32,000 nucleotides of DNA from Sedimentisphaera cyanobacteriorum (GCF_001997385.1 NZ_CP019633.1:210001-242000); one strand, 5' to 3'; positions 1-27,452 are shown, counted from the stretch's first letter. Numbers and translations: made by a program. Notes: generated by a model from the sequence alone, not told the origin.

Positions 1-97
1 TCTAATCAGCCGTCCGGCGTTTTATTGTCATAATGCTGCTTAATTTTTGGCGGCTTTAATAAAAATTTCAGAAAAGATTCTCTTAAGGGAGAAATTT

Positions 98-5927: not shown

Positions 5928-9131
<3,204 letters not shown>

Positions 9132-9175
9132 CTTAAAAACATTTTAGCTGCATTGTTCCATGTATAAACTTGAAG

Positions 9176-9210
9176 ACTGCCGCAGGCTAATACTGCGGCA
9201 GTTTCATTTT
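9176..9210 (+). terminator. Rho-independent terminator after the GH2 gene.
   Basis: Perfect 10-bp inverted repeat ACTGCCGCAG (9176..9185) / CTGCGGCAGT (9193..9202), with a 7-nt loop GCTAATA, followed by TTCATTTT. Confidence 0.7.
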
Positions 9211-9364
9211 ATCAGTTAGCTGGAGATGTATAATCAGACTCTAAACTGTTTGCGCATAAAGGGCTTTAGTTTCCAATAAATCTCCGTCTGATTCGGCTAG
9301 TCTTGATTTATAAATGCGGCTTTATATACTCTCTTGAAAAGTGTTTTTAATTACGGCGAAATGA

Positions 9365-10525
9365 ATGAAACAGTTGCTTATTTTAGTAGATACCTCACGA
9401 GGCCCCGGCAGAAGTTTTCTTTCCGGAGTAGAGTCTTATCTTAGATTCAATCCATCTTGGGATGTGTTGATGCCCCCGCCAAAATACGTTTGTGATAGCG
9501 GGCTCTTCCCAGCCAAGTGGTGTTATCAGCAGAATCCGGATGCGATGATTGTTTTTGGCTACTATGACATAAAGAATATCCTCTCTTTTAACAAGCCCAA
9601 AGTTGTAATGTCTCTTGATAATACCGCTGGCAGTGATGCAGCTGCCTTAAAGGCCGATTCTAAGGCTATTGCACAAATGGCGAGCGATTACTTGTTTTCT
9701 TTAGGACACAAACGTTTCGGTTATTGTAATTGTGGAAATATCACTTGGGCTAATGAGCGAAAGACGGCTTTTAAAGAGATTATAGAACAGAACGGGGCAG
9801 AGCTGTACTCTTACAATCTTTTGCTGTCCAGCAGTACAAAAATAAACAGGGCTCGTAAAGAACTTTCGGATTGGATATATTCCCTGCCTAAGCCAATATC
9901 GCTGCTGGTATGTAATGACGACATCGCAAGGATTGTATTAGATGCCTGTAAACTTGTTTCTGTAAGTGTACCTGAAGAGGTTTCTGTATTGGGAGTAGAT
10001 AACGATAGTTTGATATGTCATCTTTCACGTCCTGCTCTTTCAAGCATTGAATTAGATTTTGAAGGTGCCGGTTATCGTACTCTCGAACATTTAGACAGGA
10101 TTATCTCGGGAGAAGAAACTGCCCGGGTAATGAATATTGAGCCGGTCAGGATTGTAACTCGTCAGTCAACTGATATGTTGGCAGTAGAGGATTCTATTGT
10201 CAGAGAGGCTCTTATTTTCATAAGAAACAACTATCAGCGCAAAATTTCAGTTTCAGATGTAACTGAGCATATCTGTTTTTCTCGCAGCGCCTTGGAAAAG
10301 AGATTTGAGGCTGCAATACATCGTTCTGTTGCCGGAGAGATAACCCGCCTCAGGATAGGTATGGCAAAGAATAAACTCCTCAATTCAAGACTCTCAGTAA
10401 ATTTGATAGCTTCAAAGTTTGAGTTTACCAATCCGCAGCATTTTTCACGTTTTTTCAAAAATGCTGTCGGTATAACACCGGATGATTTTCGTAAAAGATA
10501 CTCAAAGAACAACGCAGCTGACTAG
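9365..10525 (+). CDS. Hybrid transcriptional regulator: N-terminal periplasmic-binding-protein/LacI-type sugar-binding fold plus C-terminal AraC/XylS HTH (XylR-like).
   Basis: 386-aa ORF. The N-terminal ~270 aa carry the PBP-type pattern (LLVCNDDIARIVLDACKL, VSVLGVDND). The C-terminus carries the AraC HTH_18 pattern (ISVSDVTEHICFSRSALEKRFEAAIHRSVAGEITRLRI...FTNPQHFSRFFKNAVGITPDDFRK). This architecture is typical of XylR-type sugar-responsive activators. Confidence 0.9.
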   Translation: MKQLLILVDTSRGPGRSFLSGVESYLRFNPSWDVLMPPPKYVCDSGLFPAKWCYQQNPDAMIVFGYYDIKNILSFNKPKVVMSLDNTAGSDAAALKADSKAIAQMASDYLFSLGHKRFGYCNCGNITWANERKTAFKEIIEQNGAELYSYNLLLSSSTKINRARKELSDWIYSLPKPISLLVCNDDIARIVLDACKLVSVSVPEEVSVLGVDNDSLICHLSRPALSSIELDFEGAGYRTLEHLDRIISGEETARVMNIEPVRIVTRQSTDMLAVEDSIVREALIFIRNNYQRKISVSDVTEHICFSRSALEKRFEAAIHRSVAGEITRLRIGMAKNKLLNSRLSVNLIASKFEFTNPQHFSRFFKNAVGITPDDFRKRYSKNNAAD

Positions 10526-10560
10526 GGCTGAAGGCAGCATTAATTGAGCAGGATAAAACT

Positions 10561-12249
10561 ATGACTGAATTAGACATTGTTACCTTCTTAGTTTATATAG
10601 CCGGCCTTTTGGCGCTTGGTATATTATATTCCTCTCAAATCAAAAATACTAAAGATATGTTTGCTGCAGGAGAAAGCTCGCCTTGGTGGTTAGCAGGGAT
10701 TTCAGGGCATATGGCGATGTTTACTTCAGGAACATTTGTTGTTTGGGGAGGCATTGCCTTTCGTCAGGGATTGGTTGGTGTCAGCATACTGATGATGATT
10801 GGGATTTCTGCATGGATGGCGGCTTTCACAATCGCAGCCCGCTGGAAAGCCTCAGGGGCAGTTACGCCTGCAGAATATATAGAAAATCGCTTTGGACACG
10901 CAGCAGTACACTTTTATTCTTGGGTTTCAACGACTTTCCGTATGATTGATGTTGGGATTGCTTTATATGCTGTCTCTGTGATACTTTCAGCGCTTATTAC
11001 AGTTCCAGAAGGGCATTTTTTAGCTGGTAGAAACGGTGAGACAATATCAGTTTACTGGGCGATTGTGATTTGCGGCTTCGCAATGGTGCTTGTTTCTGCT
11101 GCTGGGGGGCTTTGGGCAGTATTGATGGCTGATGTGATTCAATTTGTTGTTTTGACTGTCTCAGTATTAATTGTAATCCCATTGCTCTTAAATGAGGTTG
11201 GAGGAATTAAATCGTTTATTGATAATGCGCCCGAAAGGTTTTTTATACCATACAGCAGGGAGTTCCCTCCGTTGTTTCTTGTTGGATGGATCATTATTCA
11301 TTTCTTCAAAATTGGCGGACAGTGGGCATTTGTGCAGAGATTTTTGTGTGTTTCATCAAAACAAGACGCAAAAAAGGCAGCTTTGCTGTTTGGCCTGCTC
11401 TTCATTGTCAGTCCGATATTCTGGATGCTTCCTCCTATGATGTATCGGATTATAGATTCAAACGCAAATTCAGAAAAGGCCTTTATTCTCGCCTGTCAGT
11501 CTGTATTGCCTCCTGGGATGCTGGGGCTCATAGCGGCTTCTATGTTTGCCGCCACGGCAAGTACGGTTAACTCTCAGATAAATGTTTTTGCAGGTGCGTT
11601 CTCTCGTGAGATATACGGCAAAATTGCCCGTTTTAAAAGCTCTGAAAAATCGATGCTTCTGTTCGGTCGTTTTGTTTCTTTATTGCTGGGCTTAATTGTT
11701 ATCTCTATTGCAGTTTTGATTCCTTCTTTAGGGGGCGCAGAAAATGTTGTTCTGCATCTGACAGGAATGTTGGTAACCCCTATAGTACTTCCTTCAATTT
11801 GGAGTTTGTTTTCTCGTAAAATTGGCTTGAGCTCTGTTATTGCCACCTTTGGGGTGAGTATTGGCGGTATGAGTTTATTGAAGCCTTTTATTGAATCCAG
11901 ATCAGGGTTTATAGACAACCCGCTTTTGCTGGAAATTTGGATTATTGGAATAATATTACCTGTTTCTGTGTTGCTGTGGTTTGAATTTACAGGCAGCACT
12001 AAATCAATAAGCTGCTCGAGAGTTAGAGCTATAAAAGATTCTGCTGAAAAAGTGCCCTCTCTCTCTAAGGCAGGGAGACTCAGACATTTTCTGATTTCTG
12101 GCTATGTTTTTTCAACTGGGTTAGTAATTCTGATTATTGCTGTTCTTAATGAGCAGGGCAGGAAAGTTTTGTTAATTGCTGCATCTGCACTTATTTTAGC
12201 TGTAGTTGTTATAAATTTCCGTTTATTGAAAGATAAATTTGGTGATTGA
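10561..12249 (+). CDS. Sodium:solute symporter family (SSF/SGLT-like) sugar transporter.
   Basis: 562-aa ORF that is very hydrophobic, with about 13 or more predicted TM stretches. It contains the SSF-type block GGLWAVLMADVIQFVVL. It lies 35 nt downstream of the sugar-type regulator. Confidence 0.85.
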   Translation: MTELDIVTFLVYIAGLLALGILYSSQIKNTKDMFAAGESSPWWLAGISGHMAMFTSGTFVVWGGIAFRQGLVGVSILMMIGISAWMAAFTIAARWKASGAVTPAEYIENRFGHAAVHFYSWVSTTFRMIDVGIALYAVSVILSALITVPEGHFLAGRNGETISVYWAIVICGFAMVLVSAAGGLWAVLMADVIQFVVLTVSVLIVIPLLLNEVGGIKSFIDNAPERFFIPYSREFPPLFLVGWIIIHFFKIGGQWAFVQRFLCVSSKQDAKKAALLFGLLFIVSPIFWMLPPMMYRIIDSNANSEKAFILACQSVLPPGMLGLIAASMFAATASTVNSQINVFAGAFSREIYGKIARFKSSEKSMLLFGRFVSLLLGLIVISIAVLIPSLGGAENVVLHLTGMLVTPIVLPSIWSLFSRKIGLSSVIATFGVSIGGMSLLKPFIESRSGFIDNPLLLEIWIIGIILPVSVLLWFEFTGSTKSISCSRVRAIKDSAEKVPSLSKAGRLRHFLISGYVFSTGLVILIIAVLNEQGRKVLLIAASALILAVVVINFRLLKDKFGD

Positions 12250-12346
12250 TTTGTGAAAAATGGCGTTGAAGAACCTGCCCTATAAATTATACTTCATCTC
12301 AGTTTTATTGCATTAAGCGAAGTTAATTATTTTGAAAGGAATCAAA

Positions 12347-14905
12347 GTGGAACTTTTATCCGGTTGCTCATTGCCCAAGTTTAAGGCTCTCAGTACTGCT
12401 CAAAAAATCATTTCGCTATTTTTGAGGAAGAAAAAATTGCGCCAATCTTTTATGTTTCTTTTCCTGATTAGTTTTGCTGTTCTCTCGGCAGGCAGCGCTG
12501 TGGGCGGGTCAGAACCTCGTTCAAGCTGGTCGGGTGTTTATCCGCATCTTGCATATTTCAATGATAACAGAGAATGCGGCACTGGTGCAGTTGTGCCTTG
12601 GGCTGATCGGCTCTGGGTTGTTACTTACGCCCCTCACAGCCCAAAAGGCTCGGAGGGTGAGAATCTTTATGAAATTGACAGTGATTTAAATCTTACTGCC
12701 CATCCTGAAAGCATTGGAGGCACGCCCGCCGCTCGTATGATTCATCGTGAGTCGAATCAGCTGTTCATTGGCCCTTATGTTGTTGATGATGAGCGTAATA
12801 TTAGAGTTATCCCTTACTCTAAGATGATGGGACGTCATACAGGGATTGCCCGGCATTTGTTTGAGCCTTCATCGAAAGTATATTATGCAACCATGGAAGA
12901 AGGGCTTTATGAAGTCAACGTTAATACTCTTGAAGTAAATTGTTTGATTAGAGACGGCAATTCGGGTGCTCCGAAAGAAGGGATTAAGAGTGATCTGCCC
13001 GGCTATCACGGAAAAGGATTTTATTTAGCTCAAGACCGGCTCGTTTATGCGAATAACGGACAAAAAGGCCCAAAGGCAAAAACCGACCCTACAATCCCCT
13101 CAGGTGCTTTGGCAGAGTGGTACGGGCAGGGGGACTGGCAGCTTGTTCGCAGAGATCAGTTTACTGAGGTAACAGGCCCAGGAGGGATCTACGGCAATCC
13201 TAACAGTTCCGACCAGCTGTGGTCAATTGGCTGGGATCAGCGTTCTTTAATTCTCGCTCTGCTTGATAAGGGGCAATGGAGCTTTTACCGTTTACCGAAA
13301 GCTTCTCATACCTATGACGGTGCGCACGGCTGGAATACCGAGTGGCCAAGAATTAGAGATATCGGTGAAGAATACTTGCTTATGAATATGCATGGAATGT
13401 TTTGGCAGTTTCCAAATAACTTTTCACGTGAAGACCGCAGCGGAATCAGGCCGATGTCAACTTATCTGATGGTGCTTGGTGATTTCGCTCAGTGGCGGGA
13501 CAGGGTTGTTTTAGGATGCAATGTTACTGCCAGAAGCGAGTTTTTGAATACTCTAAACGCTAAAGGGGATATGGCTTCGCCAGGCCAGTCTCAATCTAAT
13601 CTCAGGTTTATCGACAGCGGCCGTTTGGACAGTTTTGGAAAACCTATTGGCCGAGGTGCAGTGTGGCTGAATGATTCTGTTAAAAAAGGTCAAGCTTCTG
13701 ATCCATACCTGTTTGCCGGTTTTGACATGCGCAGCGTGCATTTGGCACATCAAAATGATAAGCCGGTTAGTTTTATATTCGAAGTGGACAAGCTTGGAGA
13801 TGGAAGCTGGGAGCATTTGAAAACTGTAACTGTAGATGCGGACGGTTATAAATGGGCAGCTTTCTCCCCTTCAGAAAAGGGCGAATGGATACGAGTACAT
13901 ACCAACAGGGACTGTTCACAGGCAACAGTATTCTTCCAGTACAGCAGCCATGAAAAACGCACAACCCAGCTTGATAAAATCTTCGACGGTATCGCTCGTC
14001 CCGGAAGTTCAGCTGTTTGCGGAGGTTATATTAGAGCAAGAGGGGAAAACAAAAAAACGCTTCAGTTTTCAGCTAAAACCAGAGAAAACGGAAAAGTTAA
14101 GAACGCAGGCTATTACGAGATGATGCTGGATAACAAAGATTCTATGAGCTTGCGCAGAGTTGATGATGAACAAGCCCATACCTTTATGCAGGAAAATATG
14201 GAAGTTCCTGAAGATGTTATAAGCGTAGATCAGGCCTCTTTGATATATGTTGACGAAAAGGGCAAGCGTTTTCGTCTTCCCAAAGGCGATGAGTCTTTTG
14301 ATAAAACCGGACCGGTTGGTTCAGAGCGTATTTCCCGTGAAGTTGTAACTGAAAGAGATCTGTTCAATGCTCACGGCACGTTCTATGAACTCCCGGCGAA
14401 AAACGCTGGCGGTTTTTCCAAAATACGTCCAGTTGCAACTCACAATCGCCGTATCGCAGATTACTGCAGCTGGCGAGGCCTTTTAATTCTTTCCGGCATT
14501 GCTGATAATGCCCCAGAGAGCAATAAACATATTATTCGTTCCGAGGACGGCAAGGCTGCCCTTTGGGTTGGCGCAGTTGATGACCTATGGGAGTTTGGCA
14601 AACCTGTCGGCAGGGGAGGCCCTTGGAAAGATACCCATGTAAAAGCTGGTGAGCCTTCAGATCAGTATCTGATGACAGGGTACGAGAATAAAACTCTGGA
14701 GCTCTCTCATAAAAGCGATAAACCGGTAGAGGTATGCATCGAAGTGGATATCGACGGACAGGGCACTTGGAAAACTTACCGTAAGATTCAAATTCCTGCT
14801 GACTGTACTGTTAAGCACCGCTTCCCTGAAGGTTTCAATGCCTATTGGGTGCGCACAACAGCCGATACCGAAACCGTTGCCACCGCCTATTTTATATATG
14901 AATGA
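12347..14905 (+). CDS. Conserved secreted protein of unknown function: N-terminal propeller-like region plus two copies of a ~100-aa beta-sandwich-like repeat. Candidate uncharacterised glycan-active enzyme.
   Basis: The ORF is open from 12332 (TTG). GTG 12347 has GAAAGGA 6 nt upstream. ATG 12452 (MFLFLISFAVLSAGSAVGG) is an alternative start. Internal repeats: FGKPIGRGAVWLNDSVKKGQASDPYLFAGF...DKPVSFIFEVDKLGDGSW (nt ~13630..13942) versus FGKPVGRGGPWKDTHVKAGEPSDQYLMTGY...DKPVEVCIEVDIDGQGTW (nt ~14593..14902). I recognise no named family. Confidence 0.8.
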   Translation: MELLSGCSLPKFKALSTAQKIISLFLRKKKLRQSFMFLFLISFAVLSAGSAVGGSEPRSSWSGVYPHLAYFNDNRECGTGAVVPWADRLWVVTYAPHSPKGSEGENLYEIDSDLNLTAHPESIGGTPAARMIHRESNQLFIGPYVVDDERNIRVIPYSKMMGRHTGIARHLFEPSSKVYYATMEEGLYEVNVNTLEVNCLIRDGNSGAPKEGIKSDLPGYHGKGFYLAQDRLVYANNGQKGPKAKTDPTIPSGALAEWYGQGDWQLVRRDQFTEVTGPGGIYGNPNSSDQLWSIGWDQRSLILALLDKGQWSFYRLPKASHTYDGAHGWNTEWPRIRDIGEEYLLMNMHGMFWQFPNNFSREDRSGIRPMSTYLMVLGDFAQWRDRVVLGCNVTARSEFLNTLNAKGDMASPGQSQSNLRFIDSGRLDSFGKPIGRGAVWLNDSVKKGQASDPYLFAGFDMRSVHLAHQNDKPVSFIFEVDKLGDGSWEHLKTVTVDADGYKWAAFSPSEKGEWIRVHTNRDCSQATVFFQYSSHEKRTTQLDKIFDGIARPGSSAVCGGYIRARGENKKTLQFSAKTRENGKVKNAGYYEMMLDNKDSMSLRRVDDEQAHTFMQENMEVPEDVISVDQASLIYVDEKGKRFRLPKGDESFDKTGPVGSERISREVVTERDLFNAHGTFYELPAKNAGGFSKIRPVATHNRRIADYCSWRGLLILSGIADNAPESNKHIIRSEDGKAALWVGAVDDLWEFGKPVGRGGPWKDTHVKAGEPSDQYLMTGYENKTLELSHKSDKPVEVCIEVDIDGQGTWKTYRKIQIPADCTVKHRFPEGFNAYWVRTTADTETVATAYFIYE

Positions 14906-14917
14906 TGCAGTTTTATT

Positions 14918-17704
14918 ATGATGATAAAAAGCGTGATTAGGATTTCAGAATTGGTTGCATTTCTCGCAGTGATACTGTTTTTGAGCAGTTCGGCTCTATC
15001 TGCTGAGAATGTGTTTACTTATGATTTTACAGAGCTTGATGCGGAGGTTTCCAAAGGTGTCTCTTTGGAAGTTCGCAAAGATTCTGCGAAATGGTATGGC
15101 CGTGAGCAAGGTTACCAGCATGCATATCTTAGTGAAAAGAAGCAGTTCGTTGAATTTGCTGTTAATGTTCCTGAACCCGGGATGTATGCCCTGAAGGTAA
15201 AGCAGCTCAATCAACCTGATAACGGCATCTATCAGCTGCTTTTGGGCAGTGAAAATGATGGATTTGCTTTGGCTGGCGGCGGCCTGAAGATCGATCAGGC
15301 CGATCTCTGCGGAGAATACAGTTTTAGAAATGTCAATTTGGGCGTGCATCGTTTTCAGACAGCCGGCCTTAAAAAATTCAGGTTTAAGACTGTAGGCAAA
15401 AATAAAGACTCCAAAAGTTACAATCTCTCCTTCTCTGAACTGACTCTCATGAAAATCCTGCCGCTTGAGGTTTCTGATTTCTCAGATATGGAGTATGTGA
15501 GCGATGTTAATTCACAAGACGGCTTCTATTATCGAATAAAATCTGACGCCCCGGGTGAAGTTGTGAAGTATCCTGTTAAGGCAGAAAAGGAAGGTTTTTA
15601 TGCAATCGTAATACGAAACGTATTAAGCCCTGCGGGTGCTGAATACAAAGTGTCTTTTGATAATAAAAATTTAGGCAGCAAGATTGATTCCTTCAATCCT
15701 GATTTGCAGTATTCAATGTTTACAGCTGGCGTTATAGAAGTTGATTCCCCGGGTGAGCATATTGTAGAATTAAAAATCACAGGGAAGAATTCGATAAGTT
15801 CCGGCTACTCGTTAAATTTTGACACAATACGCTTGGTTGACCCGGATATTATCGTAACATCCGGGTGGGGTGTTAATTCAAGCAGGGTTAAAGGGTGGTG
15901 GCCGAAATCGACTTATGCAGATAATTACTACGGGAGATTCTACCGTTATTCAAGGGCGGGTCATACCCGTTTCTACCGTAATTTGAAACCCTCCGATGAG
16001 CCGGAAATAATAGCATGGTGGCCCTGGCAGCCTGATTTTCAAGGTTTTCTTGCTTCTGGATGGTATAATGTTTATTACTGGCTTCCCGACGGCGACCCTG
16101 ACCGTGCATCAAATGCGAAATATACCGTGCATCATATTTCCGGCCAAACAACCTACACCGTTGACCAGCGAAAGACAGGCGGAGAATGGAAACTGCTGGG
16201 CAGCCATTTCTTTGAGAAGGGGCGGGCAGGGCGTTCAGGGTATGTGGAGCTTTCGAACGATGCAGATGGTGTGGTTATTGCCGATTCGATCAAATATGAG
16301 TATGCTGAAAAACAGGGTTTAGAGCCGAAATCGCAATCTCTGCAAGATGCAGAGTCTGGTTCATACACAGTTCAGTTAGCTCAAGAGAAGCAAACCGTCT
16401 GGGGACTTGGCGTGGAGATCCAGCCGGAAGCCGAAAGGAGAGGCGGAATTAACCGCAGCAAGGGCATCCCGGGCGATTTAACCGAATCGGAGCGAAAGAG
16501 ATTCTATAATGAACTGCTCGGATTCGGCCATGGGTTCCGATATATGAGGCTTCCTATGGGGCTATTTTATACCGGGCTGGATGATGAGAAAAAGCAGTTT
16601 CAGCAGAATTGGAGCTCTCAGAACGAGCAGCTGGCAGAAATGATACAAGAATCCGGTATTGAAGGCTTTAATTTTGAATACTGGTCGCCAGCTCCGTATT
16701 TCAAATCTAACAATAGGTTTGTTGGCGGTTCTCTGAAAAAATTTGATGAAAAATTTTTGACTGAATTTGGCAATTCAATTGTTAAAGATTTAAAATATGT
16801 TCAGGAAAATATCGCACCTGTCAAAATGTTTTCTTTGCAGAATGAACCAACCGTTGGCGAAGCCGGCTACGGCTGCTGCGAGTATAGCGGGCAAGAATAC
16901 TGCGATACGTTTCGAGCAGTCGCGCCGATTGTTAAGAATGAATTTCCTGAGCTTTTTATACACGCCGACAGTCAGGCCGGCCAGTACGGCAAAGGCTCGA
17001 TACTTATTCGAGATGATTCCAAGGCGATTGAATATGTGGATGGCTGGTCTTGGCATCGTGTCGGGAAAAATTCTGATGAACAGATCAAGTACAGCGATTC
17101 GAAATTTAAGAAAGATACACAAGGCAGGCCTGTGCTGAACGTGGAATTTGAATATCTTGATGGTGCAGGTTCTCAGTGGCGATTTGTAAATACTGCTCAG
17201 TCTATTATGAATTGGTTTGCATTTAATGAGTCTCCTGCATGGTTCTGGCTGCACGCTCTAAAACCTACTGATACTCTTATAGGTGAAAGGTTTGGGCTTG
17301 GTTTTTGGCGGCCTTCAAGCGATAATGATTTTACCCGTTATGTTGACATCAAAAAGAATCACTGGCAGTACAATTGGTATCACTGGAACGCTATTGCCGG
17401 ATTCTTGAAGTATATGCCGTGGGATTCAGTTATTTGCCGTGTAGATGAAGACCAGACCCGAAAAAATCAGCGAATTCTGGCTTGGAAAACGCCTGAGGGC
17501 AAGTTGGTTCTTGCTTTAACCAATCGCTCTTGTGACGCACCTTTTAAATTCAATCTTGATGTCGGGGTTGATGCTGAATTTAAAGGATATCGCTATACTT
17601 CTCAAACCAGAAATAATATTGGAAAGTACGCAGGAATAAGACGGGGGCGGGAGTTTTCAAGGGAATTAAAGCCTTTTACTGTTGAGTTTTGGGTGCAGCA
17701 GTAA
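14918..17704 (+). CDS. Secreted GH30-like (clan GH-A) glycoside hydrolase with two N-terminal beta-sandwich repeats and a golvesin-C-like domain. Paralog of the C-terminal half of the 98..5857 gene.
   Basis: 928-aa ORF beginning 12 nt after the previous stop, with a signal-peptide-like N-terminus (LVAFLAVILFLSSSALSA). It shares blocks with gene 1: FRYMRLPMGLFYTGLD, IEGFNFEYWSPAPYFKSNN, MFSLQNEP (nt 16838..16849), VDGWSWH, a retained Glu in LNVEFEY, and the C-terminus EFWVQQ. Confidence 0.87.
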   Translation: MMIKSVIRISELVAFLAVILFLSSSALSAENVFTYDFTELDAEVSKGVSLEVRKDSAKWYGREQGYQHAYLSEKKQFVEFAVNVPEPGMYALKVKQLNQPDNGIYQLLLGSENDGFALAGGGLKIDQADLCGEYSFRNVNLGVHRFQTAGLKKFRFKTVGKNKDSKSYNLSFSELTLMKILPLEVSDFSDMEYVSDVNSQDGFYYRIKSDAPGEVVKYPVKAEKEGFYAIVIRNVLSPAGAEYKVSFDNKNLGSKIDSFNPDLQYSMFTAGVIEVDSPGEHIVELKITGKNSISSGYSLNFDTIRLVDPDIIVTSGWGVNSSRVKGWWPKSTYADNYYGRFYRYSRAGHTRFYRNLKPSDEPEIIAWWPWQPDFQGFLASGWYNVYYWLPDGDPDRASNAKYTVHHISGQTTYTVDQRKTGGEWKLLGSHFFEKGRAGRSGYVELSNDADGVVIADSIKYEYAEKQGLEPKSQSLQDAESGSYTVQLAQEKQTVWGLGVEIQPEAERRGGINRSKGIPGDLTESERKRFYNELLGFGHGFRYMRLPMGLFYTGLDDEKKQFQQNWSSQNEQLAEMIQESGIEGFNFEYWSPAPYFKSNNRFVGGSLKKFDEKFLTEFGNSIVKDLKYVQENIAPVKMFSLQNEPTVGEAGYGCCEYSGQEYCDTFRAVAPIVKNEFPELFIHADSQAGQYGKGSILIRDDSKAIEYVDGWSWHRVGKNSDEQIKYSDSKFKKDTQGRPVLNVEFEYLDGAGSQWRFVNTAQSIMNWFAFNESPAWFWLHALKPTDTLIGERFGLGFWRPSSDNDFTRYVDIKKNHWQYNWYHWNAIAGFLKYMPWDSVICRVDEDQTRKNQRILAWKTPEGKLVLALTNRSCDAPFKFNLDVGVDAEFKGYRYTSQTRNNIGKYAGIRRGREFSRELKPFTVEFWVQQ
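15839..17704 (+). repeat. Paralogous block copy 2 (golvesin-C-like plus GH30-like unit). Partner at 3986..5857.
   Basis: See copy 1. The two are collinear, of similar length (1866 versus 1872 nt), with no indels obvious by eye in the catalytic part. Confidence 0.9.
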
Positions 17705-18435: not shown

Positions 18436-19272
18436 ATGAAGAAATCAGTTTTGTTTGCAATCTTTTTAGTATTTGCAGCGGGTGCAGCAAAAGCCGCATT
18501 TAATGCTGTAGGAGTGTATGACGAACAGGATGTTCAGTCTAATCAAGTTGATTACGACATGGGTTATTCGAGCAACAGCTCATGGACAACAGGTATTGGC
18601 CAGACACTTGGTGATAATCAGATTTTAACTCTCCAAGAGTTTAAGCCTATGGTTGAACAAGCCTTTACGAACGGCCGCGGCGGAGTTGTTGACTTCGAAC
18701 ACCAGGGTACAATAGACGATGCTTCATCATTTGATGTCAAATTTGACGGGGGCAACAAGCAATTTACGGTAACCGCAACTGGAAATAGCGGCGCAGCCGG
18801 CACATTCAAGTTTGACGAGACCGGCGGTGACAGAACACCAATATCAGGTGCCGACAGGCTTCAGGGAAATAGTCAGTCCCTTGATTTTGACTTTAGTGAT
18901 TATATTGGTATGGAATCAGACGAAAGAATAAAGGCCATCGGCTGGACAATCCTCGGCCGAAGCAATTCGTCGGGCTCCGCTAACTGGCGGGTGATTGCTC
19001 GTTATACTAACGGCACAGATACCGGCAGCAGCAGTACCTTCCGCACGATAAATATGTCCAGCGGGGATACTACCCATGATAGTTTCTCGGGGATTGCTGC
19101 ACCTGATGGTTACTGGATTACTGGTATGAGGATAAACAGCGACCAGGGCGCTTGGTCAGCTCATGATGATTTTGGATTTGTAACAGTTCCCGAGCCCGCA
19201 ACTCTAGCGATATTTGGTCTTGGCGGCTGCATTGTTTCTCTAAATAAACGCAAACGCAGAAACGGCAGATAA
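18436..19272 (+). CDS. PEP-CTERM-anchored surface protein made of a signal peptide, one copy of an unrecognised ~230-aa module, and a PEP-CTERM sorting signal.
   Basis: 278-aa ORF with a strong SD GAAGGAG (18421..18427). The signal peptide is MKKSVLFAIFLVFAAGAAKA. The C-terminus VPEPATLAIFGLGGCIVSLNKRKRRNGR has the PEP motif, a TM helix and an Arg-rich tail, which is the canonical exosortase substrate signature. Confidence 0.9.
   Translation: MKKSVLFAIFLVFAAGAAKAAFNAVGVYDEQDVQSNQVDYDMGYSSNSSWTTGIGQTLGDNQILTLQEFKPMVEQAFTNGRGGVVDFEHQGTIDDASSFDVKFDGGNKQFTVTATGNSGAAGTFKFDETGGDRTPISGADRLQGNSQSLDFDFSDYIGMESDERIKAIGWTILGRSNSSGSANWRVIARYTNGTDTGSSSTFRTINMSSGDTTHDSFSGIAAPDGYWITGMRINSDQGAWSAHDDFGFVTVPEPATLAIFGLGGCIVSLNKRKRRNGR
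18496..19185 (+). repeat. Unrecognised ~230-aa module, copy A (most divergent).
   Basis: It shares these blocks with copies B and C: AVGVYDEQ.VQ.NQVDY, NSSWTTGIGQ.LG, FDGG.KQFTV.ATGNSGA, GG.RTPISG..RLQGN, F.FSD..GM, WRVIA.YTNG.D.GS, INMSSGDT..DSFSGI.AP.GYWIT. Confidence 0.85.
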
Positions 19273-20792: not shown

Positions 20793-23039
20793 ATGAATAA
20801 TATCAAAATTATATTGGCGCTGTTTCTTTTTCTTGGCTGCGGATTAACCTTCGCTGCCACTTTTGAAGCTGTAGGCGTTTACGACGAACAGGACATGCAG
20901 GCTAATCAAGTTGATTACAGTATGACCTATTCAGACAATTCTGTATGGACAACAGGTATCGGCCAAACCCTTGGAGAGAGTCAGGTAATGACGTATGAAG
21001 AATTCAAGGTGATGGTCGAAGAATATTATTTAGATGGTGATGGAGGAGTAATAAATTTTGATAATGCGGAAATGAGCGATTCGGCCTCATTCGCTGCGAG
21101 TTTTGATGGAGGCCAGAAACAGTTTACAGTGAATGCGACGGGAAATTCAGGTGCTAGCGATACAGTTCAAAACACATCTTCCGGAGGGAATAGAACGCCC
21201 ATCTCCGGCGATAAAAGACTCCAGGGCAATACGAACAGGTATGAATTCGAATTCAGCGATTTTACAGGGATGGACCCGCAGGACATAATCGCCGCAGGAA
21301 TCACTGTTCTCGGCAGAGACGGCAGCAGCGACAGCTGGTGGCGCGTTATTGCATATTACACCAACGGAGAAGACTCAGGAAGCACAAGCACCTCAAGATA
21401 TATCAATATGAGCAGCGGAGACACAACTGAGGACAGTTTCTCAGGAATAAGGGCGCCTGAGGGATACTGGATTACAAAATTGCGTGTACATTGCGATATA
21501 AGCTGGACATGGAGCGCGGCAGATGATTTGGGCTTCGTGTTTGAATCGTCAACTAAGCCTTACGGGCCTTCTGTAAGTCAGACTGCCCAGCCCGGCGGGG
21601 TAGATGCAGTTCTTTCATGGCAGGCTGGTCCTGATGAGAATGATGTTTATGCTGTGAACCCCGACATTGTTGATCAGTACGTTTTTATGACAACTGGCGG
21701 GGATGACCCGAACCTTTATTACGTTGGAGCTGCAGGCGAAGACCCGGGCACTGAAGATCCTTCCTCAGAATATGCCGTTTCAGACCTCAATTATGATGCT
21801 TCTTATCAGTGGGCAGTCGTAGAGGCTCTTGACGGATACGAGCAGAGCTTAACCGTAGGGGTAAGTGAGCTTGAGGATGTTAATGAAAATAATATCATCG
21901 GTTCAGTATGGAGCTTTGATACGCTTTCAAGCGTTCCGGTTATAGAAACTCAGCCTGCAGATGTTCTGGAAGATGCAGGAGAGGATGCTTCGATTTCTGT
22001 TGAAGTCAGCAGCGTGTCTCCTGAGCAGTATCTCTGGTATAAATCTGATGATAATTCTAGCGATACTCCCGAAGATGACGTTGAGGCAGGCAGCTCTTCA
22101 AATACACTGAATCTGGACAGCATTGCTGTTGCCGACGAAGGATACTACTATTGCGTTATAACAAATAACGGCGGGTCTGTTACTTCTGATACCGCCAACG
22201 CAGCAGTAAAGCGTCAGATGGCGCACTGGACATTTGATCAGGCAGATTATTCCGGCGGGCAGTATCTTGATGTCAGCAGCGATGATGATGTTTATTATCC
22301 CGCAGACCCCAACGGAACACCCGCATTTAATACAGGTATCGATGGTGATTCGATTCTGATTGACGAGGTAAACAGCTGGGCTCGTGCAGGTACGTGGAAT
22401 CCTTCAAAGTATTCCAATCAGCTTACTGTAAGCGCTTGGGTTAAATGGGATGGAGATACTTCATCCCACAAAGGAATTGTAAGCAAGCGTGATATCTGGG
22501 GAAGTGAAACTATGCTCTGGAGTTTGATAATTAGAAATGAATATCCGGGCGGTACTGTCCGTTTTTACAACAGCAGCGGACTAAGCGTTTGGACAAGCGA
22601 ATCTCTTCCGATTGATGAATGGACGTTGATAACAGCAGTCTTTGACGGCTCAGAAGGCAAAGTTTATTTCAATGGATTAGAGAAGGCTTCCGGAAGCGGC
22701 AGCCTATCTTCTGGAACAGAGACTATGATTATGCTGGGTGCTGTAGATAATCCTTCTGTCAACGAAGAATTTGACCCGCTCAGCGGCAGCGAACTGGATG
22801 ATGTTCAAATTCTAAATTATGCAGCAGATAAATTCGCTGTGGCTGATATGTACTATGAAGTTACAGGCATAAAATCCTGCATATTAGATTATGAGTCTCA
22901 GCTCGATGTTGCAAATACCAACACCGACCTTGTGATAGGGCAGGAAGGCTTTGAGCCTGATTGCGTTATCGATATCTCTGATTTTGCTGCTCTTGCCGGG
23001 AATTGGCTAAGCTGCGGATTATACCCTGAGTGTGAATAA
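20793..23039 (+). CDS. Secreted protein: signal peptide, unrecognised ~230-aa module, WSF(D/T)T-type beta-sandwich, Ig-like domain, LamG/ConA-like domain, Cys-bracketed dockerin-like C-terminal tail.
   Basis: 748-aa ORF with SD GAGGAG upstream. The signal peptide is MNNIKIILALFLFLGCGLTFA. Motifs: LSWQAG...YQWAVVEA...GSVWSFDT; VADEGYYYCVITNNGG (Ig); VSAWVKWDG...LDDVQILNYA (LamG); and the end EPDCVIDISDFAALAGNWLSCGLYPECE. Confidence 0.88.
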   Translation: MNNIKIILALFLFLGCGLTFAATFEAVGVYDEQDMQANQVDYSMTYSDNSVWTTGIGQTLGESQVMTYEEFKVMVEEYYLDGDGGVINFDNAEMSDSASFAASFDGGQKQFTVNATGNSGASDTVQNTSSGGNRTPISGDKRLQGNTNRYEFEFSDFTGMDPQDIIAAGITVLGRDGSSDSWWRVIAYYTNGEDSGSTSTSRYINMSSGDTTEDSFSGIRAPEGYWITKLRVHCDISWTWSAADDLGFVFESSTKPYGPSVSQTAQPGGVDAVLSWQAGPDENDVYAVNPDIVDQYVFMTTGGDDPNLYYVGAAGEDPGTEDPSSEYAVSDLNYDASYQWAVVEALDGYEQSLTVGVSELEDVNENNIIGSVWSFDTLSSVPVIETQPADVLEDAGEDASISVEVSSVSPEQYLWYKSDDNSSDTPEDDVEAGSSSNTLNLDSIAVADEGYYYCVITNNGGSVTSDTANAAVKRQMAHWTFDQADYSGGQYLDVSSDDDVYYPADPNGTPAFNTGIDGDSILIDEVNSWARAGTWNPSKYSNQLTVSAWVKWDGDTSSHKGIVSKRDIWGSETMLWSLIIRNEYPGGTVRFYNSSGLSVWTSESLPIDEWTLITAVFDGSEGKVYFNGLEKASGSGSLSSGTETMIMLGAVDNPSVNEEFDPLSGSELDDVQILNYAADKFAVADMYYEVTGIKSCILDYESQLDVANTNTDLVIGQEGFEPDCVIDISDFAALAGNWLSCGLYPECE
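20856..21545 (+). repeat. Unrecognised ~230-aa module, copy B.
   Basis: It aligns collinearly with copy C (25455..26141) and copy A (18496..19185). All copies are the same length to within one codon. Confidence 0.9.
21191..21498 (+). repeat. Near-identical nucleotide tract within module copy B. Partner at 25787..26094.
   Basis: My by-eye alignment finds about 10 mismatches in 308 nt. This includes a perfect run of about 90 nt (ggcgataaaagactccagggcaatacgaacaggtatgaattcgaattcagcgattttacagggatggacccgcaggacataatcgccgcagg). Confidence 0.9.
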
Positions 23040-23142: not shown

Positions 23143-23376
23143 GTGAAAAATTTACTCTCTTTAATGGCTGTCATTTTAATATTTTCTGCTGCCGGCAAAA
23201 GCTTTGGCGAAACCATAACTATAGATAATGATATTCAAACCTACACATCCCTTGCTGATACTGCAGTAAATATCACCGGCACCTCAGAGCTGCACCTTTC
23301 CGGCAGCGCGACTGTATTAGATAACTGTCAGATAAATTTGAATTCTGCGGAAGCTTGGCTTTTTTTTCATCTCTGA
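23143..23376 (+). CDS. N-terminal fragment (signal peptide plus the first ~55 mature residues) of the downstream large protein, separated from it by a frameshift in a T8 run.
   Basis: GTG start at 23143 with AAGGAA 6 nt upstream. The signal peptide is MKNLLSLMAVILIFSAAGKSFG. The fragment ends ...NSAEAWLFFHL* immediately after the T8 run at 23360..23367, and the reading continues sensibly in the -1 frame. Confidence 0.6.
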   Translation: MKNLLSLMAVILIFSAAGKSFGETITIDNDIQTYTSLADTAVNITGTSELHLSGSATVLDNCQINLNSAEAWLFFHL

Positions 23377-26300
23377 AGCCCTCTGAGGTCAATTCGCCAG
23401 TTTATCTCAGCCAAATTTATGTAAGCGGCACACAGTCTGCATTGAATTCAAATATTAGAATAGTACGTTACCATAACGGCGCTGTTTTAATTCCGCATGG
23501 CGAGGATTATGAGCCGCTTAAAGTGTACAGCGGAATGAACTTTACTGGCAGTTCCCTCAGCCTCGGCCTGCATACCTATTACAAAACTGACCAGCTCGGG
23601 TTTATGAACGATTCAATTCGCTCTTTTACTTTGAAACGAGGCTATATGGCCACATTTGCCGAAAATAGCGACGGTACAGGAATCAGCAGAGTTTATATAG
23701 CAGACCAGAAGAATTTGAAAATTGGAGTTATGCCCGCAAATCTTGATAAATCTGTTTCGTTTGTCCGGGTGTTCCCATGGCACTGGACAACCAAAAAAGG
23801 CTGGGCAGGCGGAACTCCAAGTTATGTTTCAGGTTCGGCTTCTGAAGCTTTGAATTGTTCATGGCGGTATGACTGGGGCAATGGCGGAGAGACTACTCTG
23901 GATGTGGAATATGTTCCGATGAGACACGGCCCAACATGGCCGAGCTATTCTGTAACCAACGCAAAGGAAAATGTAACGCATGTGCTGGGATTTAATGAAC
24001 CCGACCGGCCGGATCAGGCTGATATGTCAGTTTCAGAAGCGATTGACAGATGGCCGAATCTGCTTGCCTCAGGCCTGCGTTTAGGAGCGCCTTCGCCCAG
24101 CGACGGCGGCCTGAACTGGCTGTATGATTTTATTGATCAGGCCGATGCCTTGAACTATCGTGTAGATTTTGTCCCAGTGCATTTTTATAAAAATAACTGG
24201 TCTGCCTCACAGATGTATAATTGGCTGAAAGCCGTGCACGAAAGAACAAAAAGACCTCTCTGGATTACTGAGTGGAACAACGGCTGCAACTGGACAGCCC
24301 CTCATCCCACATACGAGCAAAATGGCGATAAGATTGCGGAGCTGCTTTCAATGCTTTCCACCGCTTCATTTGTGGAAAGATATTCAATCTATCAGTGGTG
24401 CACAAATCGTGAGATGTTTTATGATGACGGCTGGATTACCCCTGCGGGCAATGCCTACAAGGACCATGTCAGCTTCCCAGCGATATCATTAGACCAAAAC
24501 AAGGAATGTATTGGTTTTTACAAACTCGATGCACCTAACGGAACTTCGGCTGTTGATTTGTCCGGCAAGCAGATGGAAGCCGGCTTGAAAAACGGCCTCT
24601 CATTTGATAATGATTCTGTTCAGGGAATGCGGGGATATGCCCTTAGTTTGGATGGTGATGAGTATATTGAATTGCCCGATGGATACGATGAACTGGAAAA
24701 TGGCTTTTCAGCTTCCTTCTGGGTATATCCGACAGCGGTGAAATCGTATGCGAGATTCTTTGATCTCGGCAATGGCCCAAATGGAGATAATATCGTAGCC
24801 GCAAGATATAGTGATACTGATGATTTATATTTTAAGGTATATAATAATGCCACCGGCGGCACTATGGTTCGGGCTTCCAATGCCATAGAGCTGAATAAGT
24901 GGCAGTTTTTTTCTGTTACAATTGACAGCATTGGTAATGTGAAGATTTATAAAGATTCACAGCTTATCAAAACAGGCACTTCCTCGCCGCCTCGGAGTGT
25001 CTTTAGAAGCTCAAATTTTATAGGCCGCAGCAATTGGCCTTACGATGGATATTATGAGGGCAGGATAGATGATATTCGTTTGTTTGATTATGCTCTCAAT
25101 GAAAATGAAATTGATGCCTTGTTTAATATAAGTATGACTTCAGAGCCTTATGACGGAACACCTGCTGATATACCCGGCCAAATCTCAGCTGAACGTTTTG
25201 ATTTAGGAGGGCAGGGCATTGCTTATTACGATTCTACAATAGCAAACGAGCAGGGAGCTTTCAGGTCGGGTGAAGACGTGGATATTCGGGGCGTTTTTGA
25301 TTATTTTAACAGCTTTGCGGTAACCGATATCGAACCTGATGAATGGCTTAATTATACAGTTAATATTCCCGATTCTGACAATTACTGTATGTACCTGCGT
25401 GCCAGTACAACTTTAAACGAAACTCCAGTTCTAATTAAACATTTCACTTACCCTTTTTTTGAGGCTGCAGGAGTGTATGACGAACAGGAGGTTCAGACTA
25501 ATCAAGTTGATTACAGTATGAGCTATTCGAGCAATTCCTCATGGACAACGGGTATCGGACAAAACCTTGGAGCAAGTCAGGTTATGACGTATGAAGAATT
25601 CAAGCCGTGGGTGGAAGAGAAATACTTAAGCGGCAATGGAGGCGTGCTCAATTTTGATAATACCGAGCTCGGTAGTTCAGAGTCTTTCAATGCAGTCTTT
25701 GCCGACGGGCAGAAAAAATTCAGCATTACTGCAACCGGCAGCTCGGGTGCAAGCAGCTTTGTCAACAATACAGCTTCCGGAGGCGGTAGAACGCCCATCT
25801 CAGGCGATAAAAGACTCCAGGGCAATACGAACAGGTATGAATTCGAATTCAGCGATTTTACAGGGATGGACCCGCAGGACATAATCGCCGCAGGCATCAC
25901 TGTTCTCGGCAGAGACGGCAGCAGCAATGCCTGGTGGCGCGTTATTGCATATTACACCAACGGAGAAGATTCAGGAAGCACAAGCACCTCAAGATATATC
26001 AATATGACCAGCGGAGACACAAGCGAGGACAGTTTCTCAGGAATAAGGGCGCCTGAGGGATACTGGATTACAAAATTGCGTGTACATTGCGATAACAGCT
26101 GGATTTGGAGCGCTGTGGACGACTTAGCTTTTGTTTTTGAAAATCAGGCACAAAGTTCTTCGGTTGTGGAATTAAGCAGTTTAGAAGAACAAATGCTTGC
26201 CGAGTTTACAGTCAGTAGCACAGGTTCTTCTGATAATTTCAAAACCTTTGTACTCAATGATGTGATTTTGCCTGCTGGCGGAAGTAAGCTTTTGCGGATG

Positions 26301-27452
26301 GAATTTCCGGTTGGCGGGCTTGATGTAAACTGGCTTAGAATTGAGAAAGAAGGGCATTGGAGCGAAACTCCCCCAACGATTCCGGGAAGGATTCAGGCTG
26401 AAGAATACGACTTCGGCGGTCCCGGCAAAGCGTATTACGACACTACTTTTGATAACGCCATCGGCGATTTTAGGTATTATGAAGATGTTGATGCTGCTGA
26501 TATCGGTGATTCTGGAAGCCGGTATGCAGTAGGCGGTATTGAGGCAGGTGAATGGCTCAGATATACAGTGAACAGTAATGAGGGGGCAGCAGATGTATAT
26601 GCCAAAGTTGCTTCTGTTCAGTCCGGAGGCCAAATCTTTGTTCGGATTGATGGTGAGCTTTCGGCCGTTATTGATGTTCCCAATACATGCGGATTAACAA
26701 ACTGGCAAATTATTCCCGCACCTTGTGAAACATTGCCGGAAAATCAGAATGCTTTAGTTGAGCTTGAATTTGCAGGGGAGGGCTTCCAGCTGGATTGGGT
26801 ACAGTTCGCAAAGCAGATTCCCTATCCGGAAAATGTTCCGCACTCAATTCCCGGCCAGATAGAATTTGAGGATTTTGATACCGGCGGCCATGATATAAGC
26901 TTTTATGATACAACTCCTGCAAATACTTATGGCGGGTATCGGCCTGATGAAGCCGTGGAAATTGCTGCTGTAAATGACGGATTTGCTGTGTATGCAGAAG
27001 CCGGCGAATGGCTTGAATACACCGTTGATTTAACAGGCGGAAACTATGATCTCTCAATTCTTTCCGCAGGGCCTTATTCCGGTCAGCAGCTTACATTATC
27101 TCTTGATGGGAATCATATTGTGTCTGCAGATTTGAATACAACAGGAGGCTGGTCAGACTGGCATACAACCGTGATCCCTGATTTGGTCCTCCCGGACGGG
27201 CAGGGACAGGTTTTGCGGATGAAATTGGATAGCTCAAGCGCTTTCATCGATAATATGAGCTTTATCAGGCATTATAATCCCGCAGATATTGACCAGAGCA
27301 CTAAGGTTGATTTAGAAGATTTTTCGATATTAGCTGATCAATGGCTTGATGCACCGGGCGAGCCGTCCGCTGATATTGCAAAACCTCCGAACAATCAGGT
27401 AGGAATAGAGGATTTACTGATTCTACTTGAAAACTGGCTTATAGAGGAATAA
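23355..27452 (+). CDS. Large secreted multidomain protein (body of the frameshifted gene): Glyco_hydro_cc-type (PF11790, GH128-like, clan GH-A) catalytic domain, LamG domain, CBM6 interrupted by the ~230-aa module, two intact CBM6 domains, dockerin-like C-terminal repeat pair.
   Basis: 1365-aa ORF. The TTG at 23355 is probably not a real start (see the frameshift). Catalytic blocks: SWRYDWGNGG, VLGFNEPD (acid/base Glu), VDFVPVHFY, PLWITEWNNG (nucleophile Glu). LamG: FSASFWVYP...GRIDDIRLFDYALNENEIDALF. CBM6 starts: IPGQISAERFDLGG, IPGRIQAEEYDFGG, IPGQIEFEDFDTGG. Tail: KVDLEDFSILADQWL...VGIEDLLILLENWL. The GH128 link is tentative. Confidence 0.85.
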   Translation: MAFFSSLKPSEVNSPVYLSQIYVSGTQSALNSNIRIVRYHNGAVLIPHGEDYEPLKVYSGMNFTGSSLSLGLHTYYKTDQLGFMNDSIRSFTLKRGYMATFAENSDGTGISRVYIADQKNLKIGVMPANLDKSVSFVRVFPWHWTTKKGWAGGTPSYVSGSASEALNCSWRYDWGNGGETTLDVEYVPMRHGPTWPSYSVTNAKENVTHVLGFNEPDRPDQADMSVSEAIDRWPNLLASGLRLGAPSPSDGGLNWLYDFIDQADALNYRVDFVPVHFYKNNWSASQMYNWLKAVHERTKRPLWITEWNNGCNWTAPHPTYEQNGDKIAELLSMLSTASFVERYSIYQWCTNREMFYDDGWITPAGNAYKDHVSFPAISLDQNKECIGFYKLDAPNGTSAVDLSGKQMEAGLKNGLSFDNDSVQGMRGYALSLDGDEYIELPDGYDELENGFSASFWVYPTAVKSYARFFDLGNGPNGDNIVAARYSDTDDLYFKVYNNATGGTMVRASNAIELNKWQFFSVTIDSIGNVKIYKDSQLIKTGTSSPPRSVFRSSNFIGRSNWPYDGYYEGRIDDIRLFDYALNENEIDALFNISMTSEPYDGTPADIPGQISAERFDLGGQGIAYYDSTIANEQGAFRSGEDVDIRGVFDYFNSFAVTDIEPDEWLNYTVNIPDSDNYCMYLRASTTLNETPVLIKHFTYPFFEAAGVYDEQEVQTNQVDYSMSYSSNSSWTTGIGQNLGASQVMTYEEFKPWVEEKYLSGNGGVLNFDNTELGSSESFNAVFADGQKKFSITATGSSGASSFVNNTASGGGRTPISGDKRLQGNTNRYEFEFSDFTGMDPQDIIAAGITVLGRDGSSNAWWRVIAYYTNGEDSGSTSTSRYINMTSGDTSEDSFSGIRAPEGYWITKLRVHCDNSWIWSAVDDLAFVFENQAQSSSVVELSSLEEQMLAEFTVSSTGSSDNFKTFVLNDVILPAGGSKLLRMEFPVGGLDVNWLRIEKEGHWSETPPTIPGRIQAEEYDFGGPGKAYYDTTFDNAIGDFRYYEDVDAADIGDSGSRYAVGGIEAGEWLRYTVNSNEGAADVYAKVASVQSGGQIFVRIDGELSAVIDVPNTCGLTNWQIIPAPCETLPENQNALVELEFAGEGFQLDWVQFAKQIPYPENVPHSIPGQIEFEDFDTGGHDISFYDTTPANTYGGYRPDEAVEIAAVNDGFAVYAEAGEWLEYTVDLTGGNYDLSILSAGPYSGQQLTLSLDGNHIVSADLNTTGGWSDWHTTVIPDLVLPDGQGQVLRMKLDSSSAFIDNMSFIRHYNPADIDQSTKVDLEDFSILADQWLDAPGEPSADIAKPPNNQVGIEDLLILLENWLIEE
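23360..23367 (+). other. T8 homopolymer at the frame junction. It is a candidate indel, phase-variation or slippage site.
   Basis: The sequence is c-tttttttt-c. With T9 the reading would be ctt ttt ttt tca tct ctg aag, giving ...AWLFFSSLKPSEV... in a single frame. In the 0 frame the run also forms the heptamer T_TTT_TTT. Confidence 0.8.
25455..26141 (+). repeat. Unrecognised ~230-aa module, copy C, nested inside the first CBM6.
   Basis: The sequence PFFEAAGVYDEQEVQTNQVDYSMSYSSNSSWTTGIGQNLG...GYWITKLRVHCDNSWIWSAVDDLAFVFE is flanked by CBM6 N-half and C-half sequence. Confidence 0.9.
25787..26094 (+). repeat. Near-identical nucleotide tract within module copy C. Partner at 21191..21498.
   Basis: Same alignment as for the partner. 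Identity drops sharply upstream of 25787, and more gradually downstream of 26094. Confidence 0.9.

Follow-up and report, generated by a model that had tools for sequence, protein, structure and literature searches.

The locus described here raises the question of whether one carbohydrate-binding domain can be carried in a protein as two separated halves, with a whole other domain between them. The protein is encoded by an open reading frame (ORF) of Sedimentisphaera cyanobacteriorum, a planctomycete of the class Phycisphaerae, at 23355..27452 on the plus strand (1365 codons as listed) of a 32,000-nucleotide (nt) stretch of DNA (GCF_001997385.1, NZ_CP019633.1:210001-242000); this whole stretch is referred to as the window. 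The gene product is a secreted modular glycoside hydrolase with a GH_cc/GH128-like catalytic domain, a LamG domain, three CBM6 domains and a dockerin-like tail. A first-pass annotation, made from the sequence alone, had proposed that the first CBM6 domain (CBM6#1) is split by an inserted module. Our analysis confirms the split, and we put at roughly 0.85 the probability that CBM6#1 is a discontinuous (A1-B-A2) domain that hosts a whole, separately folding domain. We regard the split CBM6 as a well-supported, modest structural curiosity and not as a special DNA-shuffling system. The segments concerned are the following (aa, amino acid residues).

25170..25442, plus strand: N-terminal half of CBM6#1 (N-half), aa 606-696, IPGQISAERF...PVLIKH, CBM_6 profile positions 5-58
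25443..26186, plus strand: insert, aa 697-944, made up of the short N-junction FTYPF, a module core (aa 702-931, nt 25458-26147) and, at about aa 932-944, a C-linker of low confidence and variable length
26187..26351, plus strand: C-terminal half of CBM6#1 (C-half), aa 945-999, EQMLAEFTVSS...NWLRIEKE, CBM_6 profile positions 65-125

The two halves of CBM6#1

Both flanks of the insert match the CBM_6 profile (PF03422) in Pfam, and they do so over complementary ranges. By itself the N-half gives 13 bits over positions 5-58, and the C-half gives 15.6 bits over positions 65-125 together with a match to positions 62-111 of CBM_35_2. When the halves were joined in silico, the match covered CBM_6 positions 5-125 of 125 with 29.5 bits, which places the spliced domain just over the gathering score of 28.9 bits and gives it full-profile membership. 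Comparison with the CBM6 domain of PDB entries 2y8k/5la2 gave two matches for the native, unspliced stretch, one of query 14-89 to residues 342-417 and one of query 353-401 to residues 434-480, which are collinear and complementary. After splicing, positions 8-155 of CBM6#1 align to residues 342-480 of 2y8k with an E value of 2.4e-12. The spliced copy 1 is also collinear in alignment with copies 2 and 3 and with the ortholog copies, in keeping with the likeness to copies 2 and 3 that had been noticed earlier for the resumed C-half.

The alignment places the break at a 'V(K/R)-L-D-G' turn between two strands, the insertion point being the β-hairpin between the strand that ends in PVLIKH and the strand MLAEFTV, and the reading frame is unbroken across both insert junctions. 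The 'TGGW'-type position reads 'TGSSDNF' in CBM6#1, and insert-less orthologs show this reading in their first copy as well. The first-pass annotation had put the start of the domain near 25171, its break near 25440, its resumption at about 26160..26345 and the length of the module at 229 codons, and all of these are present within a few bases of those values.

Orthologs with and without the insert

Orthologs were collected by a search with the whole protein, and nine of them were aligned. A first word-index protein search with the 410-aa region had missed the nested orthologs, which the full-length query recovered. In seven of the nine (P0019, P0020, P0021, P0024, P0026, P0027 and P0028) CBM6#1 is uninterrupted ('...IPVTVK LNNTALGTI...') and continuous exactly at the position of the break; these proteins are 54-57% identical to the hydrolase and share its GH_cc-LamG-3xCBM6-dockerin-like architecture. 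P0022, P0023, P0025 and P0029 have shorter lengths that match the absence of the insert. The remaining two aligned orthologs, P0017 of S. salicampi (92% identity, 1436 aa) and P0018 from a JGI metagenome (57% identity), contain an insert of about 245 residues at the identical point. The match between the split and this ortholog pattern is far beyond chance. Complementary and collinear host halves, an autonomous insert (see below) and insert-less host homologs that are continuous at the insertion position together define the A1-B-A2 architecture, and the nesting of the module in a split CBM6, as first proposed, is borne out on all three counts.

The nested junction also occurs outside the GH_cc enzymes. 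A module search of cluster representatives, combined with Pfam and inspection, identified the junction 'PVIIKR/...FEAVGVYDEQ...' (slash, break) in the GH16-LamG-CBM6 proteins P0139 and P0145. In P0139 the LamG-CBM6[module]-CBM6-CBM6-dockerin-like array is carried on a GH16 catalytic domain instead of GH_cc, whereas P0145 comprises the GH16-LamG start and the nested junction before it is ended by a contig edge; P0242 (1257 aa) is a longer member of the cluster of P0145. All three proteins come from Logan/ENA metagenome assemblies. The presence of a nested CBM6 in a GH16 array implies that the catalytic domain or the CBM array has been exchanged between enzyme families. As the site is identical in GH_cc and GH16 enzymes, the most economical reading is one origin of the junction, which would then have spread by vertical descent or through homologous recombination between related arrays. 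The nested form is rare: an alignment of the junction searched against genome contigs returned one irrelevant CBM6 piece, and against metagenome contigs it returned module-only matches.

The inserted module and its family

Two further copies of the module are present upstream in the window, at distances of 4.6 and 7 kb from the nested copy.

20862..21557, plus strand: paralogous module copy after the signal peptide of ORF 20793-23039 (module-Ig-LamG), 80% protein identity to the nested copy
18436..19272, plus strand: free-standing module (signal peptide, module, PEP-CTERM), 57% identity to the nested copy, identical to L21SP3_00157

The stretch of the insert that is homologous to the nearer paralog comprises aa 702-933 and corresponds to residues 24-255 of ORF 20793-23039. 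The insert equals the whole mature globular part of the free-standing homologs, as it starts with 'F-x-A-V-G-V-Y-D-E-Q', right after the signal-peptide cleavage site of those proteins, and ends with 'D-D-L-x-F-V', right before their PEP-CTERM tag. Within the window, only ORF 18436-19272 has the PEP-CTERM motif itself; the nested copy and ORF 20793-23039 lack it. An exhaustive search of 1.84 billion representatives returned a module family of 112 cluster representatives at E values up to 1e-3, the majority of them 255-310 aa long. Most members are surface proteins that consist of a signal peptide, the module and PEP-CTERM. Other settings are the N-terminus of large surface proteins, a position directly after GH_cc, tandem arrangements, and positions beside SLH, Calx-beta, Ig and fn3 domains; P0012 (520 aa), for example, has two module copies in tandem followed by a PEP-CTERM tag. 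The module also occupies internal positions in P0149, P0153, P0159, P0169, P0229 and P0233, with no detectable CBM6 there.

The module has no Pfam match at E values up to 10 and no NCBIfam match, and its family profile found nothing below an E value of 0.6 among PDB sequences. A direct hhalign comparison detected no relation between the module and CBM6 (probability 0.1), and on this result an origin of the insert by duplication and divergence of a CBM6 was rejected. The module is plausibly an uncharacterised extracellular β-sandwich and a candidate binding or adhesion module.

A second candidate for nesting, P0144 (636 aa), was considered as a module within GH_cc. In this protein GH_cc is broken off at 'VHFYQAN' and joined directly to a module that is missing its first 17 or so residues. 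The candidate was rejected as a truncation/fusion, given that GH_cc does not resume; compared with P0044-type proteins, which have the order GH_cc-module-PATR repeats, P0144 has the appearance of an assembly chimera or of a protein with an internal deletion.

A different explanation of the nested arrangement would be that it is an artefact or a selfish element: either the assembly was wrongly joined across the module copies, or the insert is of an intein-like or mobile kind and is later lost from the protein. Near-identical repeated tracts of 300 nt could mislead an assembler, and the presence of at least one indel in the hydrolase gene of this assembly would point in the same direction. However, the nested arrangement recurs in S. 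salicampi (locus L001), in the JGI metagenome (locus L002) and in the Logan/ENA proteins P0139, P0145 and probably P0242, and the frame is continuous through both junctions. Its presence in several independent assemblies means that it is not an assembly artefact, and that candidate was rejected. As to a selfish element, the insert has no Hint or endonuclease match in Pfam, and the intein splice residues (an N-terminal Cys/Ser, and a C-terminal His-Asn followed by Cys/Ser/Thr) are absent from the junctions, which read KH/FTYPFFEAAG and ...FENQAQSSSVVELSS/LEEQ. No direct repeats or target-site duplication were found at the insert borders, and the insert is homologous to ordinary secreted proteins. 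Intein and transposable element were both rejected in view of the lacking splice signature and border repeats, and we give this explanation as a whole next to no weight.

Structure models

An AlphaFold2 model of the module alone, built from 46 sequences, has a predicted local distance difference test score (pLDDT) of 90.8 and a predicted template modelling score (pTM) of 0.90, and contains one helix and about 13 strands. Foldseek found no match of this model in the PDB below an E value of 1e-3. The model of the nested region, aa 596-1006 (24 sequences), has an overall pLDDT of 76.2 and a pTM of 0.65. Within it pLDDT is about 78-91 in the strand that leads into the insert (aa 689-697) and in the C-half's four strands (aa 946-998). 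The N-junction spans just 3-4 residues, and the C-junction (about aa 932-943), which differs in length among orthologs, is modelled at a pLDDT below 50. A Foldseek comparison of the nested model with GH5-CBM6 chains gave a TMq of 0.28 over about 400 columns, which corresponds to about 115 residue-equivalents and is beyond what the 91-residue N-half alone could give. As an indirect indication, these models make it likely that the CBM6 halves reassemble into one sandwich in three dimensions.

Paralogous copies, gene conversion and selection

The gene-conversion signal that had been noticed is real and links the nested module to the nearer upstream copy.

25787..26093, plus strand: gene-conversion tract, paired with 21191-21497, 10 differences in 307 nt versus 117/389 nt in the rest of the module

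Within parts of this tract the S. cyanobacteriorum paralogs are 0.93-1.00 alike, as compared with 0.78-0.97 for the nested copies of the two species. The paralogs are thus more alike than the orthologs, indicating that conversion took place after speciation. The ratio of nonsynonymous to synonymous substitution rates (dN/dS) relative to S. salicampi is 0.18 for the N-half, 0.18 for the module, 0.05 for the C-half and 0.16 for the whole gene, and both the host halves and the insert are kept by purifying selection. In a neighbor-joining (NJ) tree of the module, the Sedimentisphaera N-terminal copies are sister to the Sedimentisphaera nested copies with 100% bootstrap support, and this Sedimentisphaera clade is placed with the JGI nested copy with 91% support.

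Related loci differ in which copies of the module they contain. The syntenic metagenomic locus L007 has the order free-standing module gene (2641-3477), sulfatase, two Ig-LamG genes and hydrolase (10001-13567); the Ig-LamG gene just upstream of the hydrolase (7447-9759) has an N-terminal module, and CBM6#1 of the hydrolase is uninterrupted. The occurrence of module copies beside an insert-less hydrolase indicates that they predate nesting and were available locally as donors. The JGI metagenome locus L002 has the nested module copy only.

The 748-aa module-Ig-LamG gene (20793-23039) has a composite history of its own. Its N-terminal module matches the 734-aa gene of S. salicampi (L001 5498-7702), and its C-terminal LamG part is 85-95% identical to the 682-aa gene (L001 7751-9799) and 46-69% identical to the 734-aa gene. 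The middle parts of the 734-aa and 682-aa S. salicampi genes are 97-100% identical to each other. What S. salicampi has as two separate tandem paralogs appears to be fused in the 748-aa gene, which suggests that S. cyanobacteriorum underwent an unequal crossover or a deletion and that conversion acted in S. salicampi.

The first-pass annotation had further suggested that the module behaves as a shuffling cassette. In its strong form this reading supposes a dedicated mechanism at the DNA level, for example programmed recombination or donation from silent cassettes, that generates variation. Three module copies within 8 kb, all on one strand, the sharp 307-nt conversion tract, the recombinant origin of the neighbouring 748-aa gene from two tandem paralogs and the many architectures in which the module is found would all agree with such a mechanism. 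However, the insert borders have neither direct repeats nor a target-site duplication, Pfam found no recombinase or transposase domain among the annotated window ORFs, and lineages that are 55-92% identical share one insertion site. Furthermore, a dN/dS of 0.18 indicates conservation and not diversification, and ordinary homologous recombination accounts for conversion between paralogs that lie close together in direct orientation. What stands of the suggestion is ordinary domain shuffling, as seen in the several architectures, together with gene conversion between paralogs; the cassette reading itself is weakly supported, and a dedicated mechanism is in our view very improbable. Nothing suggests a new mechanism of genome dynamics.

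Integrity of the host domain

Several observations weigh against the preferred reading of CBM6#1 and of its history. Neither half reaches the Pfam threshold separately (13 and 15.6 bits versus 28.9), and the 'TGSxxxF' of CBM6#1, compared with 'TGGW' in copies 2 and 3 of some orthologs, makes sugar binding by CBM6#1 itself uncertain. The module gives weak Foldseek matches to CBMs, namely CBM22, CBM35 and a pectate-lyase CBM, and to discoidin C2 domains, the best with an E value of 4e-3 and TM values of at most 0.52. The NJ tree shows the nested modules as paraphyletic, possibly as a result of gene conversion, and a single origin of the insertion lacks tree support, in that the flanks are about 45-65% identical and form no clear clade (NJ tree and per-region identities). 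In addition, this assembly has a 5' frameshift, described below, and the hydrolase may not be expressed here as a secreted protein.

Some of these observations could also mean that CBM6#1 was destroyed by the insertion, so that its flanks are decayed remnants and only the module, CBM6#2 and CBM6#3 are functional. The low separate scores of the halves would be expected in that case, as would a 27-residue loop region of the N-half that is modelled at a pLDDT below 50 and the absence from CBM6#1 of the 'GGW' aromatic of copy 3. On the other hand, GGW is absent from copy 1 of the insert-less orthologs too, and the C-half strands are modelled at a pLDDT of about 80-90. Purifying selection on both halves (dN/dS 0.18 and 0.05) and on the insert argues against the flanks being dead remnants. 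The halves are conserved among insert-bearing lineages as much as intact CBM6#1 is among insert-less orthologs, and the arrangement is kept in lineages that are only 55-57% identical. Decay of the host domain is accordingly unlikely, and CBM6#1 as one discontinuous domain remains the preferred reading. When the CBM6 profile was used to check for a split alignment, both sides of the insert matched.

The hydrolase gene and its neighbourhood

The remaining features of the hydrolase gene are given below.

23355..27452, plus strand: main ORF, in the order GH_cc catalytic domain, LamG, split CBM6#1 with nested module, CBM6#2, CBM6#3, dockerin-like C-terminus
23143..23376, plus strand: out-of-frame 5' segment (GTG start, signal peptide, about 75 codons) whose ortholog is the N-terminal part of P0017 from S. 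salicampi
23838..24458, plus strand: Glyco_hydro_cc (PF11790) catalytic domain, aa 162-368 (Pfam, E 4.8e-37)
24651..25112, plus strand: Laminin_G_3 (LamG-like) domain, aa 433-586 (Pfam)
26379..26813, plus strand: CBM6#2, intact, aa 1009-1153 (Pfam, 61.2 bits)
26847..27272, plus strand: CBM6#3, intact, aa 1165-1306 (Pfam; CBM_35_2 40.9 bits, CBM_6 32.8 bits)
27273..27449, plus strand: dockerin-like C-terminal repeats of the hydrolase (DFSILADQWL ... DLLILLENWL), from sequence

CAZy GH128 is covered in Pfam by PF11790 (PMC9830802). Dockerin-like repeats of the form D-[FL]-x-x-L-A-x-x-W-L end both the hydrolase (27273-27449) and the 748-aa protein (22980-23036), and the motif is kept in all aligned orthologs; a weak Pfam match to Dockerin_1 was obtained in the relative P0139.

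Because 1 nt is missing, the 5' segment and the main frame of the hydrolase are out of register, and a T8 run has formed at 23360-23367; the site reads TTTTCTTTT in S. salicampi and TTTTTTTT in the window. This 1-nt frameshift is either the mark of a recent pseudogene or an assembly indel. Despite the frameshift, the body of the hydrolase is still under purifying selection, as the whole-gene dN/dS indicates.

The neighbourhood of the hydrolase is of the polysaccharide-utilisation type. Within the window it includes two large Golvesin_C proteins (the first also with LamG and Ig), a GH2, an AraC-type regulator, a sodium:solute symporter, a sulfatase, the module-Ig-LamG protein and a GH92. Three very large ORFs are located upstream, at 47-5857, 12332-14905 and 14918-17704. 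Two of the three contain Golvesin_C domains and a similar C-terminal motif (...KGYRYTSQTRNN...FWVQQ), and one 857-aa ORF among the three has no Pfam matches. That the LamG-CBM6 array is also found on a GH16 enzyme fits a putative target of the β-glucan type, and the sulfatases of the locus suggest a more complex polysaccharide substrate.

Proposed origin and function of the nested domain

From the distribution of the copies we infer the direction and number of insertion events as follows. The donor would have been a paralog within the hydrolase locus, the module being already free-standing, and N-terminal on an Ig-LamG gene, in related loci in which CBM6#1 is intact. The coding sequence for a complete mature domain of about 232 residues would have entered the CBM6 hairpin in frame. 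This insertion may have happened once, or the junction may have been spread by homologous recombination between related CBM arrays. Afterwards purifying selection would have maintained the nested copy, and gene conversion would have made part of it more similar to its neighbour. The module is predicted to fold alone as a β-sandwich with adjacent ends, so that the CBM6 halves could close into one sandwich. The product would be an accessory unit of two rigidly coupled lobes, through which the glycan-targeting array of the enzyme gains a second surface for binding or adhesion, although any ligand of the module or of CBM6#1 is at present putative.

A more far-reaching possibility, which we put forward tentatively and consider doubtful, is that the module represents an undescribed glycan-binding or adhesion family used in three formats, that conversion keeps the C-terminal half, as a putative binding face, identical among them, and that the nested form is a composite 'CBM-in-CBM' platform. 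The three formats would be a surface protein anchored by exosortase, a module at the N-terminus of an Ig-LamG protein, and the copy nested in the CBM6 of the hydrolase. If this were true, the identical putative binding face would let the enzyme and the surface proteins recognise one ligand, and the double tether in the CBM6 hairpin would produce a rigid composite platform in which a CBM hosts a larger insert.

The close orthologs are natural 'with' and 'without' versions of the insertion. They offer a clean system for the tolerance of a β-sandwich to a large hairpin insert, for the formation of a composite site by double tethering and for the role of a PEP-CTERM-associated module family. More generally, the locus shows how neighbouring genes can give rise to new architectures through duplication, recombination and gene conversion acting locally.

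Comparison with known systems

The host domain agrees with CBM6 (PF03422; CtXyl5A of C. thermocellum, 2y8k/5la2) in that its flanks, once joined, align collinearly to the entire profile and to residues 342-480 of the structure. It differs by the 248-residue interruption after the 'PVLIKH' strand and by having 'TGSSDNF' at the 'TGGW'-type position.

Domain insertion was found in 20% of multidomain proteins in a 2026 survey, where inserts are typically compact, have termini that are close together and are smaller than the host, with 133 versus 241 residues on average (PMC13114784). CBM6#1 resembles these A1-B-A2 architectures in having a compact, autonomous insert in frame and a host that tolerates the break in a surface turn. 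In contrast to the averages of the survey (PMC13114784), the insert, with about 232-248 aa, exceeds its host of about 146 aa.

The PEP-CTERM/exosortase proteins (TIGR02595/PF07589) are related to this system through the module, as most members of the module family have PEP-CTERM and one of them is encoded 7 kb upstream. Unlike in those proteins, the globular part alone was copied in the nested version and in ORF 20793-23039, and the nested copy is without a signal peptide of its own. GH128-CBM6 enzymes such as CBM6E act on β-1,3-glucan (PMC10956234), and the hydrolase shares with these β-1,3-glucanases the combination of a PF11790/GH128-type catalytic domain with CBM6. Compared with enzymes of the CBM6E type it has an extra LamG domain, three CBM6 domains, a nested foreign domain and a dockerin-like tail.

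Insertion of a CBM or ancillary domain into a catalytic domain has been reported for a GH5 endoglucanase (PMC9063844), a GH10 xylanase (PMC7848910) and CE20 esterases (PMC12313940). In the GH5, GH10 and CE20 cases the CBM or ancillary domain is the insert and the catalytic domain is the host, whereas in the hydrolase of S. cyanobacteriorum the CBM is the host. A CBM6 that hosts a larger domain from an unnamed family, with the roles distributed in this way, is unusual among the reported cases that we found for carbohydrate-active enzymes.

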